Below, piece after piece: positions 46,526-59,603 of a stretch of 64,000 nucleotides of DNA; the first letter of the stretch is position 1; every line of letters starts with the position of its first letter. Location: contig CAYTGL010000002.1 of NCBI GenBank assembly GCA_964437335.1, forward strand, positions 66,734-130,733, read 5' to 3'. Origin of the DNA: an uncultured Chromatiales bacterium. Lineage in GTDB: Bacteria; Pseudomonadota; Gammaproteobacteria; SZUA-140. The position numbers and the translations under genes were made by a program. The notes under the pieces were generated by a model. That model had not been told where the DNA came from. It saw only the letters and a list, made by a program, of their open reading frames with translations, and searched no databases.

Positions 46526-47449
46526 ATGAAGACCAAGCCCGCTGCCGGAGACCGTATTGCCACACCCGAACCCGGGAACGGGGGTACGCTCCCGCTCGAG
46601 ACCGCCGAACTGTGGCTCAAGGACAGCGCCAGCCTGGTTTCGCCACCCGATATCTGCATCAAGATCTTCGAGCTGATGGAAACCAACCAGGCCTCGGCGC
46701 AGTCACTTGGCAGCGTCATCAGCCGCGACCCGAGCCTGACCGCGCGGTTGCTGCGCATCGTCAACAGCTCGTTTTATGGTTTCCCCCATCGCATCGATAC
46801 CGTTTCGCGCGCCGTTACCGTGATCGGCGTCAGCGAGCTGTACAACCTGGTGGTCACCGTCTCGGCAATCACTTCGTTTTCGAGGATTCCGAACTTCATC
46901 GTCAACATCGATACCTTCTGGCGCCACAGCGTTTCCTGCGGCATCCTTGCACGGGAGCTGGCGCGGCAATGCAGGGTGCTTCACCCGGAGCGCCTGTTCG
47001 TCGCCGGGATCCTGCACGATATCGGCAGCCTGGTGATGTATCATCGCGCGCCGGACCAGATCAAGAATCTGCTGCTTGCCGCGCAGGGCAACGAGACCAT
47101 CCTGCAGCATCTCGAACGCAAGGAGTTCGGTTTCAGTCATGCCGATCTCGGCGGCATGCTGCTCTCGCGCTGGCAGTTGCCGAAGCTGCTGCAGGAAGCG
47201 GTGCAATGGCACCACGATCCGGCCGCGGCGCCGGAGGCCCGGCTCGAGGCCGCGATCATCCATATTGCCGATGCCCTCGCCAACCGGTCCGAGCAGGGGG
47301 CATTTTATGCGATGCCCTCGCCGGACCTGTTCGTCGACAATGAGGCCTGGAATATCACCGGTCTCGATACGGATCCTGCCCGCCTGACGGACATCATCGA
47401 AGACACCCGCGAGCAGTATCGCGACGCCGTCAATCTGTTCGGCGCCTGA
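46526..47449 (+). CDS. HDOD domain protein (paralog 1)
   Basis: 307 aa, LLRIVNSSFYGFPHRIDTVSRAVTVIG...FVAGILHDIGSLVM. Confidence 0.9.
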   Translation: MKTKPAAGDRIATPEPGNGGTLPLETAELWLKDSASLVSPPDICIKIFELMETNQASAQSLGSVISRDPSLTARLLRIVNSSFYGFPHRIDTVSRAVTVIGVSELYNLVVTVSAITSFSRIPNFIVNIDTFWRHSVSCGILARELARQCRVLHPERLFVAGILHDIGSLVMYHRAPDQIKNLLLAAQGNETILQHLERKEFGFSHADLGGMLLSRWQLPKLLQEAVQWHHDPAAAPEARLEAAIIHIADALANRSEQGAFYAMPSPDLFVDNEAWNITGLDTDPARLTDIIEDTREQYRDAVNLFGA

Positions 47450-53872: not shown

Positions 53873-54232
53873 ATGTACCTGAGACTCGACCAGATCCCCA
53901 CGCTGCATACCCGGCCCGCGCAACTCGAGGCCCGGAATTACAATGCCATCCGCCTCGCCGTGATACGCGCGAACGGGACGCTGCGGATTCCGTTACCGGG
54001 TCTGCGCGGGATGGACATGATCCTCGACCGCCGGGCCTGGATCTGCGTCGACCGCACGTTCTACGATCTTCCGGTGCTGGCCTGGGCCGATTTCGGCTCC
54101 GCCGCGCGTGAAACCCTGCACCTGCCGGTCAGATGCCACGTCCATTATTACCACATCCATGCGGATTTTATTACCGGGGCCGTACTGAACGCGACGCTGA
54201 AGGCGGTCAACGCACGGAAAGCGCGCTCCTGA
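53873..54232 (+). CDS. Hypothetical protein (119 aa)
   Basis: High GC3 ORF divergent from purT and convergent with the HDOD gene. No recognised domain. Confidence 0.4.
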
Positions 54233-55148
54233 TCTGCTCGAGTACGTGTTCCAGCGCGGCATCGCGCCGCACCCTCAAACCGAGCGCCGAAGCCGCCGCC
54301 GCCACCTGCTCCGGCGCCTGAACCAGCATCTCGCCCAGCCGTCCCGCACCGAGACCGAAGGCCTCTTCCAGCAGCACGCGACAGTGCTCGAGTACCGTGG
54401 AACCGTCCTCGACGCGAAATACCGCGGTCATCCAGTCCGCTGCATACAGTGTTCGCGCCAGCGGCGAAACCAATGCGTGCTCAGGCGTTTCCGCCTGCCC
54501 GGCTTCTGGCCCCTCACGGCGATAATGATGCGTGCCGAGCGCCAGCCCGAGATCATCGGGCAGATCCCAGGCGTCCGCCAGCAGTGCGGCGACCGCGTCA
54601 TGCGTCATCCCGAAGCGATCGAATTCCATCGCGAGCCGGGCGTCGGGGTCGAGGCGACGCAGAACCGGCCAGCTTGCCGCCGCACCATGATCGAGATGCA
54701 GCATGACCAGCAGACCGAAGTCCTGCAGTATCCCCGCAGTAAAGCAGTCGTCGCGATCGAGGCCGGCGCGCCGCCCCAGCAGGCGCGCGCAGACCGCGCG
54801 CAACAGCGCGTCTTCCCAGAATTCCCCGCTGTCGAAACCGGGCGGCGCCTCGCGATGCATCGCGTCGCGCACCGTGAGGCACAATGCGAGATTGCGCACC
54901 GTCTTGTGACCGAGCACCGTGATCGCCCGGGCGATCGACGCGATCTCGTGCCCGGGACCGAAGTACGGAGAATTCGCGATGCGCAACAACTCGGCGGTCA
55001 GGACAGAATCGCTGGCCGCCAGACGGGAAAGCTCGGCACTGCCGAGATCGTCGCGCGTGCAGGCGTGCATGATCTCGAGCGCGATCCGGGGCGGAGACGG
55101 CAGATCGCTCGGCTTCAGCTTATCGAGTGACAGGCGGGCAGGAGGCAT
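54207..55148 (-). CDS. HDOD domain protein (paralog 2), last gene of the signalling operon
   Basis: 313 aa, LLRIANSPYFGPGHEIASIARAITVLG...FTAGILQDFGLLVM. Confidence 0.85.
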   Translation of the reverse strand: MPPARLSLDKLKPSDLPSPPRIALEIMHACTRDDLGSAELSRLAASDSVLTAELLRIANSPYFGPGHEIASIARAITVLGHKTVRNLALCLTVRDAMHREAPPGFDSGEFWEDALLRAVCARLLGRRAGLDRDDCFTAGILQDFGLLVMLHLDHGAAASWPVLRRLDPDARLAMEFDRFGMTHDAVAALLADAWDLPDDLGLALGTHHYRREGPEAGQAETPEHALVSPLARTLYAADWMTAVFRVEDGSTVLEHCRVLLEEAFGLGAGRLGEMLVQAPEQVAAAASALGLRVRRDAALEHVLEQIRSALSVR

Positions 55149-55169
55149 AAGCGGTGGCGGTCAGCGGAC

Positions 55170-55601
55170 TCAGCCCGCCTTCTGGATACCGTCCTCTTTC
55201 GTCGCGCTTTCCGGCTTCGAGGCCTTGAGTGCACCGGAGGCGTGAAATTTTTCGATGACATCATGGACCTTGCCGATCGCATACGGCTTCGCGATGAACG
55301 CGCCGGCGCCAAGCTCGATCGCTCTTTTGACATTGTCCATCGTGGTATGCGCGCTGACCATGACGATGAAGATATCGGCGTGCGTCTGCTTGAGCCTTGG
55401 CATCAGATCGAAGCCATTGCACGCGGGCATCTCGATGTCCAGAAACACGATGCCGGGCTTGATGCCCTCCAGTGTCGATTTGGCGACGTCTTCATCGGTC
55501 AGTGAGCGAATATCGGTATAGCCGAGGTTTCTGAGGATGCTCGTCAGCAGGCTGCGTGCCGACATGTCATCGTCGATCACCGTGATCGCGGTCTGTTTCA
55601 T
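55170..55601 (-). CDS. Single-domain response regulator (CheY-like REC)
   Basis: 143 aa with the DD pair (VIDDD), phospho-acceptor D in FLDIEMP, and conserved S/T...K. ATGA overlap with the upstream kinase. Confidence 0.9.
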
Positions 55602-57706
55602 TTTTGTGCTCCTCCCCGGTCGTCTCCGGATCCAAATGCCAGAATGTCCCTGATCGACTGCGCCACATTGGTACGAAGTTCCGCCGCTGCGTCGTAGCGC
55701 CCCGCCATGATCGCCGCTTCGAGCCGCCCGGCCAGCTCGCCGAGCGGCTGCCAGCCAAATCCGCCGGCCGCGCCCTTGAGACGGTGCGCCATCGCGCGAA
55801 TCTGCTCGTGGTCAATGCCGGCGGCGTTCGCGTCCCAGTCGGGCAGCGCCTGCCGCAACGATTGCAGAAATCCTGCGCGGGCCTGCAGATAGTCGGGATC
55901 AGCGTCGAGCGATATCACGTGCGCCGCCGGGCGAACGGGGCCATCGTCGCTGAAATAGTGGCCGAGCGTGGCGAGAAACCGCATGCGATCAAGCGGCTTG
56001 GTCAGAAAATCATTGCAGCCGGCCGCGACACAGCGCTCCCGCTCGCCTTCGAGGGCGCTCGCCGACAGCGCGATGACCGGCCGCGCAAAACCCGTCATGC
56101 GCAGCCATTCGACGGCCTCGAGACCGCCCATCTCCGGCATCTGCAAGTCGGTCATCATCAGGTCGAAGTCACCGGCCAGCGCCTGCTCGACCGCCTCCCG
56201 GCCATTGTCGACCTCGACGATCTCAATCCCGGTATCACGCAGATAGAGCGCTATCAGACGGCGAATGTTCGGGTCGTCCTCGGCAAGCAGCATGCGGCCG
56301 CGCATGCCGGACTTCAGCGACGCGCCTTCCGGCGCGGCAGCGACAGGCTCGCCGCGCGCAGGCACCACATCCACCAGGTCACCGGCGTCGATCGTTCCGC
56401 AGTCGATGATCACCGTGAAGCGACTGCCCGCACCCGGGATGCTCTCGACCATGATCGACCCGCCGAGGCGTTCGGCGAGCTGCTTCGAGATATGCAGGCC
56501 GAGTCCGGTGCCGCCGTATTTTCGCGTCGTCGAGGCATCGGCCTGGGTAAAGGGCTTGAACAGGCGGCGCTGCTGTTCCTGCGACAGGCCGACGCCGGTG
56601 TCGATGACGCTGAATGCGAGGGTTTTTTCGCGCGGGTCACAGGAAACCTCGACCCTGACGCTGCCGGTCTCGGTGAACTTGACCGCGTTGCTGCACAGGT
56701 TCAGCAGGATCTGCGCGAGCCGGGTCGGATCGGTCCCGATCTCGCGCGGCAGCGGGAAGCGGTAATCGACACTGAACGCGAGCCCCTTCTGCCGCGCGTG
56801 CATATCGATCAATGAAGTCACCCGCGCAACAATGTCGAACAGCGAGGCGCGCACGATCTCGAGCTGCAAGCGGTTCGAGTTGAGCTTGGACAGGTCAAGA
56901 ATGTCGTTGATGATCTCGAGCAGGTGCCGGCCGGTGCTGAATATCGTCGCGACCGCCTCGCGGCGTTCCGCGTCCGGCAGCGACTCGTCATGCAGCATCT
57001 CGGCAAAACCGATGATCGACGTCAGCGGCGTCCGGATCTCGTGGCTCATGTTCGCGAGAAACCGGCTCTTGGCCTCATTCGCCGCCTCGGCATCGGCGCG
57101 CGCCTGATCGAGCGCACGGGTGCGCTCGTCGACGATGCGTTCGAGATCGCGGTTCTGCTGGTGGATATAGCGATAGAGTTCGTGGTTTTCGATTGCGTTC
57201 GCGGCATTCGAGAGGATCATCGACAGCACCTGCTGCAGCGCATCGCGCAGCTCGGCTACGCCTTTGTCCAGAAATCCGATGTACATCCCGCGGATCCGCG
57301 AGCGAGTCGCGATGACCTGCATGACGAGCGTATTCCGGTCATCCGCGGTGCGCACCAGCAACGGGCGGGACTGGGTCAGCGCCCAGGAAAAAGCGCCACG
57401 CTCGATCTGATGATCGATCTCGCGTTCGATCGCGCCGCGTTTATCCTCGGGAAAACAGTCGTAGAGCTTGAAGTCATGGTCCTGTTCGTCGATGCGCAGA
57501 AAGGCGTACATCCGGTAGCCGAACAATTCTCTCAATCGCGGGCCGATTTCGCGCAGCACCGCGAACGGGTCACTGTTGTCGCGCAGCGAGGCGCCGGTAT
57601 CGACCAGGCCGGCGCCGATCTCGAGTGCTTCGATGAACCAGCCGCGCAGGGTTTCGAGCTCGCGAACATGCGTCTCGATATCGGTCGTGCGCGCCGGATG
57701 AGCCAT
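55598..57706 (-). CDS. Cytoplasmic hybrid sensor histidine kinase (GAF-like N-domain, HisKA, HATPase_c, REC, HPt)
   Basis: H-box [10 protein letters not shown]-box GGTGLGL, receiver [13 protein letters not shown]...[14 protein letters not shown], and a C-terminal HPt [11 protein letters not shown]. No TM segments. ATGA overlap with the upstream HDOD gene. Confidence 0.9.
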
Positions 57707-58596
57707 CACCCGGCCTTGCCGAAGATCATGCCGACAGCATCCTCGAACTGGCTTTGCACTTGCGTGAGGATCCATGGCAATACCGTCACCGGGAGACGCA
57801 ACTGATCCCAGGCGCGCGCATCGAGCGGCGGGACGAAGCGTTCGCCGCCGGCGCCCGATTCGAGCGTGTGCGCAATGATGTCTGCGACATGGACGATCGC
57901 GGCGCCGATGTGGCAGGCGCCGTCCGGCGGACAGGGCCGGTGATGCGAGCCGACCGCGATCGCAAGTGATTCGGGCAGGTTCCAGCGCCGCAACAAAGCG
58001 GCGCCGACATCGGTATGATCGAAGCCGAGCCGGCGGCGTTCGACCCTGTACAGCAATTCGCCTTCCGCCGCGCTCTCGGCGACCAGCGCAGGAAAGCGGT
58101 CGGGCAGCTCGGTGGCCATCACCAGGCGTCCGACGTCATGCAGCAGGCCGGCAATGAAGTAGTGCTCGACGTTGACTTCGCGGCGACAGGTAGCGATGAC
58201 GCGCGCGGCAACGCCGCAGGCGACGCTGTGACGCCAGAACGCATCGAGGCTCAGCGCATCGTCTCCGCTATCATCAAACAGATCGACGACCCCGGTCACG
58301 ACCGCAAGATCACGCAACTGATGCGTGCCGATGATCGTAACCGCACGGGTGATCGTGTCGATCTTCGCCGGGAAACCGTAGAGCGCGCTGTTCGCAAGGC
58401 GCAGCAAGCGGGCGGTCAGCCCGGGGTCTTCACCGATGATTCGGGCGACGTCGCGGTTCGAACATAACGGGTCATTGACGACCGCGACGAGGCGCTCACA
58501 GACCGTCGGCAACGACAACAGCCTGCTGACGCCTGCAACCAGCGAGTGCGCGGTCAGGGAATCCTCTACGAACGCCTGTCTGTTCGGCGCGTTCAC
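57706..58596 (-). CDS. HDOD domain protein (paralog 3)
   Basis: 296 aa, [27 protein letters not shown]...[14 protein letters not shown]. Likely GTG start overlapping the upstream ORF stop (GTGA). Confidence 0.88.
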
Positions 58597-58928
58597 AGTG
58601 CTTTCCGCAGCCGGAACCGGAACAGCTCCGCGATGACGGGATGGGACATGTCGGCATGGCGAAAGCGCGGCGCCAGGGATTCCCAGGCGGCCCGGTAGCG
58701 CTCGGCTTCGGCGTCCGCCGCGGGGTGATCATTCGCCACCGGTTCATTAACGGCGCCGTCGACACCGACCGAAAACACGCCCCAGGCCTTCAGCATGCGC
58801 AGGTGGTTCGGGGCGATGATCGTACCGGCCCCGAGTAATACGCGACCGTTCACATGGACGGCGTCGCGCGCGAGGACCATTCCGGGTTCGAGCTTGTCGA
58901 TTGTGATTTCGAGCATCGTCCAGTCCAC
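58593..58928 (-). CDS. Small hypothetical protein (DUF3391-like N-terminus), first gene of the signalling operon
   Basis: 111 aa. MLEITIDKLEPGMVLARDAVHVNGRVLL resembles the K-I-x-V-x-L-x-PGM-Y-V motif of the HD-GYP N-terminal DUF3391 domain. Confidence 0.5.
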   Translation of the reverse strand: MDWTMLEITIDKLEPGMVLARDAVHVNGRVLLGAGTIIAPNHLRMLKAWGVFSVGVDGAVNEPVANDHPAADAEAERYRAAWESLAPRFRHADMSHPVIAELFRFRLRKAL

Positions 58929-59135
58929 CTGCCGGCAGGGAACAGCGGGACCGGGGGCAGTCCCGGCCGCCTGTGGATTCTATCGGCGTGCCCGTCAAAG
59001 ACTTTAACAAGGTCAATGAGATACCGTGCCGCGCCGGGGCGTGGCCGCGGCCATTGCAATCGCCGCGGATTCCCCCCAGAATCGAAAACAGGAAACGGAT
59101 TCGTTCCACCGCTCGCAAACGAGAAGGAGGGCGCG

Positions 59136-59603
59136 ATGAAGATATCCGAAGTCATGACCACCGGCGTCATCAGCGCGCGTGAAGAAGATACCGTACGCAA
59201 GGTCATCGAATTGATGGTGATGCGCCACTGCGGATCGATCCCGATCGTCCGGGAGACCGACCGGCTGGTCGGCATCATCACGGTCCGCGATCTCCTGCTG
59301 CCGCTCTACCCGAACCTCGGCGACTACGTCCACGATAACGTCCGCGCGCGCGACTTCGAGGAGATGGAGATCGGTTACGGCAAGATGCTCGACCTCCCGG
59401 CCGCGGACATCATGACCCCCGACCCGATGACCGTGTCGCCGCAAGACCCGGTCCTCAAGGCCGCCTCCTACATGGGCCTCAAGAACCTCCGCCGCATCCC
59501 GGTCATCGACGAAGGCCGCCTCGTCGGCATGGTCAGCATCGGCGACATCAACCGCGGCCTGTTCCTGCGGCGGGGGTCGGACCGGCACATGCCATTGAGA
59601 TGA
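59136..59603 (+). CDS. CBS-pair domain protein
   Basis: 155 aa with two CBS motifs (MKISEVMTTGV..., ...AADIMTPDPMTVSP). RBS gagaaggagg. Confidence 0.9.
   Translation: MKISEVMTTGVISAREEDTVRKVIELMVMRHCGSIPIVRETDRLVGIITVRDLLLPLYPNLGDYVHDNVRARDFEEMEIGYGKMLDLPAADIMTPDPMTVSPQDPVLKAASYMGLKNLRRIPVIDEGRLVGMVSIGDINRGLFLRRGSDRHMPLR

Follow-up and report, generated by a model that had tools for sequence, protein, structure and literature searches.

A three-gene HDOD cassette in a putative phosphorelay operon of an uncultured Chromatiales bacterium: a possible accessory input module for a hybrid kinase

In the H-NOX/HnoK and NosP/NahK systems, the gene of a small soluble sensor protein that contains a metal stands next to that of a soluble (hybrid) kinase or, alternatively, of a GGDEF-EAL protein, and the sensor controls this neighbor through protein-protein contact. 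Here we analyze an operon whose products may follow a similar plan around HDOD, one of the domains met most often in bacterial signalling for which a biochemical role has yet to be established. The operon lies in a window of 64,000 nucleotides (nt) from an uncultured Chromatiales bacterium (Gammaproteobacteria; GenBank assembly GCA_964437335.1, contig CAYTGL010000002.1, positions 66,734 to 130,733, forward strand); all coordinates below are those of the window. It encodes a small DUF3391-like protein, a first HDOD protein (HDOD1), a hybrid histidine kinase, a stand-alone receiver (REC) protein, and a second HDOD protein (HDOD2). The five open reading frames (ORFs) run head to tail on the minus strand from 54207 to 58928, exactly where a prediction made earlier from the sequence alone (the original prediction) had placed them. 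Our favored reading, to which we assign a probability of roughly 0.5, is that the small protein acts with HDOD1 as an accessory module that provides input to the kinase and that HDOD2 is a partner of the stand-alone REC, all within a cytoplasmic relay operon. The analogy with H-NOX and NosP as adjoining sensors is our hypothesis for HDOD1; the fold is a different one, the cassette has no haem domain, and the window kinase scored 158 bits against the NahK/ErcS C-terminal model, whose cut-off is 400.

Four described systems bear more directly on the individual proteins. The solved structure closest to HDOD1 is that of Geobacter sulfurreducens NP_953345.1 (Protein Data Bank [PDB] 3HC1; E 3.6e-38), likewise a stand-alone HDOD protein of ~300 amino acids (aa), in which two Fe ions are bound by five His and one Asp (PMC12075610). 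It is nevertheless a paralog and not an ortholog, scoring 134 bits against the HDOD1 family profile, whereas orthologs score about 280-650. In Methylococcus capsulatus, the HDOD-only protein MmoQ is encoded beside MmoS, a soluble multidomain hybrid sensor kinase, and the two are presumed to form a two-component system (PMC7994243), although the pairing itself has not been worked out mechanistically. MmoQ (3LJX, E 1.1e-22) is the best PDB match of HDOD2, but HDOD1, the conserved member of our pair, is nearer to 3HC1 than to MmoQ, and no small DUF3391-like partner has been reported for MmoQ/MmoS. The third system is the Bd1817 family, whose DUF3391 domain precedes an HD-GYP domain; according to a published survey, almost all DUF3391 proteins carry HD-GYP (bioRxiv 10.1101/2021.11.05.467447). 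Finally, SadB of Pseudomonas, with a YbaK-HDOD architecture, stands alone among HDOD proteins in having a proven role: it acts as an adaptor for AmrZ proteolysis (PMC12075610), so that the original statement that HDOD lacks an established biochemical function is slightly dated. Like HDOD2, SadB is short of several metal-binding His residues; unlike the proteins described here, it has a YbaK N-domain and no reported kinase cassette.

We determined how the genes of the operon are distributed by scanning genomes, one per species, with an alignment of HDOD1 (57706 to 58596, minus strand; 296 aa). The scan returned 436 relatives, and we kept the 80 loci that ranked best by similarity to HDOD1. Most of these loci come from metagenome-assembled genomes (MAGs); we used the taxonomic labels as given. 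Cassette counts cover 82 loci and were made by tblastn with the window proteins and with a hidden Markov model (HMM) of the small-protein family. Of the 81 loci with room for it, 80 have a gene for the small protein immediately upstream of that for the HDOD1 ortholog (the exception, L014, is a special case considered below), and the GAF-like domain of the kinase N terminus is encoded directly downstream in 77 of 77. Spacing is tight, at most 60 nt between the small gene and HDOD1 in 76 of 80 cases and between HDOD1 and the kinase in 79 of 79. The loci carry eight phylum-level labels, namely, Pseudomonadota, Thermodesulfobacteriota, Nitrospirota, Acidobacteriota, Verrucomicrobiota, Bacteroidota, Ignavibacteriota, and Gemmatimonadota. 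What follows HDOD1 and its kinase is less constant. A second HDOD gene occurs within 8 kb in 6 of the 82 loci, one of these being an ortholog of a third HDOD paralog of the window, and among 48 loci the gene directly after the kinase encodes a REC protein in 28, an Hpt protein in 11, and something else in the rest. Judged from these comparisons, the conserved unit is a cassette of three genes, encoding the small protein, HDOD1, and a kinase with a GAF-like N-domain. The gene order is kept far outside the strain, for three genes and not for five.

The same counts bear on the possibility that the genes are merely co-located, the HDOD and small genes serving unrelated pathways and sharing only a transcript with the two-component genes. 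Scans for promoters and terminators across the operon region leave this idea some room, as they returned counts at chance level and are uninformative, also with regard to internal promoters. Yet the order of small gene, HDOD1, and GAF-like kinase, with spacing of at most 60 nt, recurs in about 80 genomes under eight phylum-level labels and persists when the first two genes are fused, while protein identities of 42-57% argue against recent copies of one mobile element. We therefore consider mere co-location highly improbable.

HDOD1 scored 211.1 bits against the Pfam HDOD model (PF08668; cut-off 22.9) and 36.5 bits against HD, and it passes the cut-off of NCBIfam HDIG. In an alignment of 29 orthologs from many phyla, about 50% identical, residues H123, H153, D154, H194, H218, H219, and H236 are invariant and D239 is near-invariant; the Fe ligands of 3HC1, five His and one Asp, align with H123, H153, D154, H194, H218, and H219. 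HDOD1 therefore retains the complete di-metal ligand set of HD proteins and is predicted to bind metal. An identity as an HD-GYP phosphodiesterase of cyclic di-GMP, for which we looked for the HHExxDGxGYP motif and a match to the HD_5/HD-GYP profile, was rejected: the GYP motif is absent from HDOD1, and neither HDOD1 nor HDOD2 matches HD_5.

Given its ligand set, HDOD1 might instead act as a metal-dependent phosphohydrolase of a nucleotide messenger (pGpG, a cyclic di- or mononucleotide, or an alarmone), with the GAF-like domain binding the same nucleotide and coupling its turnover to the relay. The complete HD ligands and the HDIG match would suit such an enzyme, GAF domains are classic nucleotide binders, and at one locus the cassette N-domain is joined to GGDEF-EAL. 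In addition, hydrolysis of pGpG by HDOD proteins has been speculated upon in a published analysis (PMC2952852), and DUF3391, to which the small protein bears a distant relationship, is the N-domain usually carried by HD-GYP phosphodiesterases (bioRxiv 10.1101/2021.11.05.467447). Against this, hydrolase activity has been reported for no HDOD protein, HDOD1 is without the GYP motif and the HD_5 signature, the cassette encodes neither a cyclase nor a synthetase, and the GAF-like domain is very divergent. We regard such an enzyme-and-sensor loop as unlikely, although it overlaps with one option of our favored reading, that in which the input module senses a phosphorylated ligand.

The small protein (58593 to 58916, minus strand; 107 aa in its public protein record) is the second constant element. 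It is without Pfam annotation in public data and scored 17.6-17.8 bits against Pfam DUF3391 (PF11871), under the gathering cut-off of 27.8. Among 100 members of its family, DUF3391 was the sole Pfam family to recur, with 19 matches at E ≤ 0.1 and a best E of 6.9e-7. The protein thus looks like a distant relative of DUF3391, and its original description as DUF3391-like holds as a remote relationship, below curated membership. The family itself is large: when its profile was searched against 1.84 billion representative proteins, 2546 clusters (50% identity) reached E ≤ 1e-3 and 1027 reached E ≤ 1e-10, most being 100-120 aa long. Over its first ~45 residues, the small protein resembles a segment of RNA polymerase beta/beta' and a segment of MoeA.

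At least 10 of the top 150 clusters of this family are proteins of 409-437 aa in which the small domain is joined through a linker to an HDOD domain. In the seven fusions submitted to Pfam, the small domain is N-terminal and precedes HDOD and HD matches above cut-off. In an alignment of 10 fusions, the linker is variable and rich in Pro, and the HDOD domain that comes after it is complete, HD ligands included. Two fusions were looked up in their genomes, and a hybrid kinase is encoded directly downstream of both; the kinase adjoining the fusion in locus L087 has the cassette N-domain, at 208 bits against the family HMM. In an AlphaFold2 model of one fusion (predicted local distance difference test [pLDDT] 80.9, predicted template modeling score [pTM] 0.78), short strands, one helix, and two long helices precede the helical HDOD domain, from which the small protein is predicted to fold as a short beta module with two long helices. 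Since such natural fusions exist, they offer indirect support for the view that the small protein and HDOD1 are one functional unit.

Comparing the fusion model with the published description, the likeness to the Bd1817 family is evident in the arrangement: a beta-plus-two-helix N-domain precedes an HD-superfamily domain with a multi-metal site (bioRxiv 10.1101/2021.11.05.467447). The two differ in that the HD-superfamily domain is HD-GYP there and HDOD here (no GYP, no HD_5), and the window small protein is sub-threshold and its family usually a separate polypeptide. As the survey pairs DUF3391 almost exclusively with HD-GYP, the association of a DUF3391-like domain with HDOD differs from what has been published. 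In a separate observation, a REC-HD_5 protein (RpfG-like HD-GYP) encoded a few kb off the cassette in one locus (L058:316-1848, minus strand) matches the small-protein HMM with an E of 1.5e-5, which links the small-protein module to HD-GYP proteins.

The third element of the cassette, the hybrid kinase (55598 to 57706, minus strand; 702 aa), consists of a cassette-specific N-terminal sensor domain (aa 1 to about 200, 57107 to 57706) and a transmitter part (55598 to 57106). The latter matches HisKA (aa 212-277, 56876 to 57073; 80.4 bits), HATPase_c (aa 325-435, 56402 to 56734; 104.5 bits), Response_reg (aa 473-579, 55970 to 56290; 83.7 bits), and Hpt (aa 613-682, 55661 to 55870; 39.3 bits), all above Pfam cut-offs. 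Its relay residues are canonical, with an H-box MSHEIRTP (H222), a receiver motif MMTDLQMP (D520), and an HPt motif HRLKGAAG, and the protein is assigned on this basis as a HisKA-HATPase-REC-HPt hybrid histidine kinase. That the kinase carries its own REC and HPt was correctly foreseen, and because a canonical stand-alone REC is also present, a complete His-Asp-His-Asp relay is plausible.

The N-domain is best called a divergent GAF-like domain, an assignment supported at the level of the family: GAF_3 was found in 17 of 37 orthologous N-domains (best E 3.3e-7) and GAF_2 in 12 of 37, and a profile search of the PDB gave weak matches to GAF-containing chains. A homolog search with the window N-domain as sole query returned no matches. 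The GAF-like label originally given to this kinase stands for the family, whereas the window copy itself matches nothing in Pfam. Beside HDOD1 orthologs, the domain behaves as a module. Across 66 downstream proteins, we counted HATPase_c in 64, HisKA in 63, a fused REC in 59, Hpt in 40, PAS in 6, HisKA_2 in 1, and GGDEF plus EAL in 1. Namely, the N-domain is followed by PAS-HisKA-HATPase without a REC in L012, L013, L016, and L047 and by PAS-HisKA_2, an HWE-type kinase, in L045. In L014 (8001-10842), the gammaproteobacterial MAG that is the only locus with upstream room but without the small gene, the HDOD1 ortholog is followed by a GAF-like domain fused to GGDEF-EAL, with no kinase.

These partners are relevant to the view expressed in the original prediction, in which the HDOD proteins are outputs or phosphorelay partners: the kinase would sense through its GAF-like domain, and phosphorylated REC or HPt would dock on HDOD1, HDOD2, or both. 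The domain's very name, which designates an output domain, speaks for it, as do the presumed pairing of the HDOD-only MmoQ with the hybrid sensor MmoS, the start of HDOD2 only 21 nt after the REC gene, and the retention of REC and HPt in 59 and 40 of the 66 partner kinases. Yet HDOD2 is absent from a 78% identical relative with an intact relay and from nearly all distant loci, HDOD1 has no receiver domain, and the gene after the kinase varies. Moreover, HDOD1 stays with the N-terminal sensor domain where REC and HPt are absent or where the output is GGDEF-EAL; its invariant partners are the small protein and the N-domain, not REC or HPt. An output role for the HDOD proteins as a pair seems unlikely to us; it may be reasonable for HDOD2 alone.

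We favor the small protein and HDOD1 as an input module because these two and the GAF-like domain are constant, while the REC, the HPt, the downstream receiver, and HDOD2 vary. That the N-domain adjoins HDOD1 even when it is attached to a PAS kinase without REC or HPt, to an HWE-type kinase, or to GGDEF-EAL likewise favors input over output for HDOD1. The association is also specific, in that the third HDOD paralog has the same ligands but no adjoining small gene or kinase. In the mechanism that we propose, the region would be one operon for a cytoplasmic His-Asp-His-Asp phosphorelay with the three conserved genes at its heart. The small protein and HDOD1 would act as one functional unit whose metal centre responds to redox conditions, to a gas, or to a phosphorylated small ligand, the last being bound or hydrolyzed. 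The signal would pass through the GAF-like domain to the kinase and set the autophosphorylation of H222, from which the phosphoryl group would move to D520 in the kinase REC, then to the HPt His, and on to D54 of the stand-alone REC. HDOD2, its metal site crippled, would have been added later and in this clade alone, most likely as a partner or effector of the phosphorylated REC, and the pair would amount to a split version of the known REC-HDOD architecture. What we observe is the anatomy of the genes, their domains, the conserved cassette, the fusions, and the ligand residues; that a complex forms, that HDOD1 stands at the input end of the signalling, what it senses, and what HDOD2 does are parts of the proposal that we infer. 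More broadly, and more tentatively than for the operon itself, HDOD might be an input device in a widespread subfamily: a di-iron HDOD protein and a DUF3391-like partner could make up a hitherto unrecognized sensor in the cytoplasm, responsive to redox state, to a gas, or to a phosphorylated small ligand, that controls a dedicated GAF-like domain, mostly in hybrid kinases but now and then in GGDEF-EAL proteins, in at least eight phyla.

Several points weigh against this reading. Conserved synteny speaks for functional linkage and carries no direction, and since 59 of 66 partner kinases have a REC and 40 an HPt, a position of HDOD1 downstream of the relay is still compatible with the data. The exceptions that argue for input are few (six PAS kinases, one HWE-type kinase, and one GGDEF-EAL protein), and the cassette counts are based on the best 80 of 436 genome matches. 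The N-domain of the window kinase has no Pfam match at E ≤ 1, and its single-sequence model, at a pLDDT of 59, is too poor for a fold search. Co-transcription of the five genes is deduced from the gene overlaps, the promoter and terminator scans being at chance level. To our knowledge, no HDOD domain has a demonstrated enzymatic or ligand-binding activity. In addition, SadB functions without its pocket (PMC12075610), although this dispensable pocket differs from that of HDOD1, whose ligands are invariant across phyla.

The stand-alone REC (55170 to 55601, minus strand; 143 aa) matches Response_reg over residues 6-116 (84.1 bits) and carries D10, D11, D54, S83, and K104, the features of a CheY-like single-domain receiver; it is 84% identical in L001. 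Among the genes that follow the kinase elsewhere, some are related to the flagellum, with a weak Flg_hook match in L087 (4226-5986) and L088 and FapA in two loci. These genes hint at a possible motility output.

HDOD2 (54207 to 55148, minus strand; 313 aa) is an HDOD protein by its Pfam score (152 bits), but with substitutions H123->D, H153->Q, and H236->Y, which are common to its orthologs in L083 and L085. HDOD2 has no Pfam HD match, and neither it nor its orthologs match any NCBIfam model. It thus lacks the five-His-one-Asp ligand set and is, from its sequence, degenerate. The earlier generalization that HDOD domains lack catalytic residues fits HDOD2 but fails for HDOD1 and the third paralog, whose ligands are intact. 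HDOD2 is present in the 87% identical relative L083 and the 72% identical relative L085. In L001 and L002, where HDOD1 is 78% identical, the arrangement is small protein (107 aa), HDOD (296 aa), kinase (697 aa), and REC (143 aa), without HDOD2; the REC gene runs directly into a 119-aa ORF, purT, and rnd, the same flanks as those of the window operon. HDOD2 therefore appears to be a clade-specific accessory gene outside the conserved cassette and dispensable for the other four genes, and the picture of two equivalent HDOD proteins framing the relay does not survive. The simplest reading of its distribution is loss in one lineage, which fits the pattern of presence and absence better than recent horizontal insertion; the GC content across 54-58 kb, 0.64, is unremarkable. 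The simplest role for HDOD2 would be that of a REC partner peculiar to this clade.

The junctions, read from the sequence, support a real and tightly packed operon. The GTGA overlap of the small gene and HDOD1 (58596-58593), the ATGA overlap of the kinase and REC genes (55601-55598), and the gap of 21 nt between REC and HDOD2 (55149-55169) are as originally described. Only the junction of HDOD1 with the kinase had been misread: it is not an ATGA at 57706 but GGGTGATGG, which gives TGATG or GTGA, the kinase starting at ATG 57706 (1-nt overlap) or at GTG 57709 (GTGA). The 702-aa product of ATG 57706 is the one held in the public protein collection. Similarly, the small gene could start at ATG 58916 (107 aa) or at the in-frame GTG 58928 (111 aa); the public collection holds the 107-aa protein, and ATG 58916 is the most likely start. 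In a Kyte-Doolittle analysis with 19-residue windows, none of the five proteins has a window above 1.45, so all five are predicted to be soluble, in agreement with the original view of the kinase.

In the searchable literature, which leaves out most subscription journals, we found no description of the cassette, of small-HDOD fusions, or of the contrast between an intact and a degenerate HDOD. These three may be new; the individual domains and two-component relays with accessory proteins were already known. The cassette makes the question of what HDOD does testable, as it offers a defined partner in the GAF-like domain of the kinase, an obligatory co-factor protein that also occurs fused to HDOD, and an invariant metal site, and the intact and degenerate HDOD proteins of a single operon provide a natural experimental contrast. 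It also widens the range of partners of DUF3391-like domains beyond HD-GYP. If HDOD1 is indeed an input sensor, annotations of HDOD as an output would need revision for a family found in hundreds of environmental genomes; if it is a di-iron sensor, HDOD would become the third family of stand-alone accessory sensors after H-NOX and NosP.

Several neighboring genes complete the picture. The third HDOD paralog (46526 to 47449, plus strand; 307 aa, 37% identical to HDOD1) exists as reported, but its strand is opposite to that of the operon, and it is located some 6.8 kb past the operon's 3' end, not upstream. It has the full set of metal ligands and passes the HDIG cut-off, and its ortholog has a precomputed PF08668 match. 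It adjoins a gene for a PreP-like M16 peptidase, an arrangement kept in L001. A convergent ORF of 119 aa (53873 to 54232, plus strand) shares 26 nt with the 3' end of HDOD2. Its product is without a Pfam match and is better conserved than HDOD1, with 86% identity to that of the corresponding ORF in L001; the ORF is called as a gene in L083 and L085 too. On the other side, a gene for a CBS-pair protein (58854 to 59603, plus strand) is divergent and immediately upstream of the small gene, as in L001 and L083 but not in L085; this long ORF is probably over-extended at its 5' end. In a 57% identical relative (L005:12225-13064, minus strand), an HDOD gene on the opposite strand lies just past the REC gene, its product resembling the third paralog (41% identity) more than HDOD2. 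HDOD paralogs appear to gather near the cassette in differing ways.

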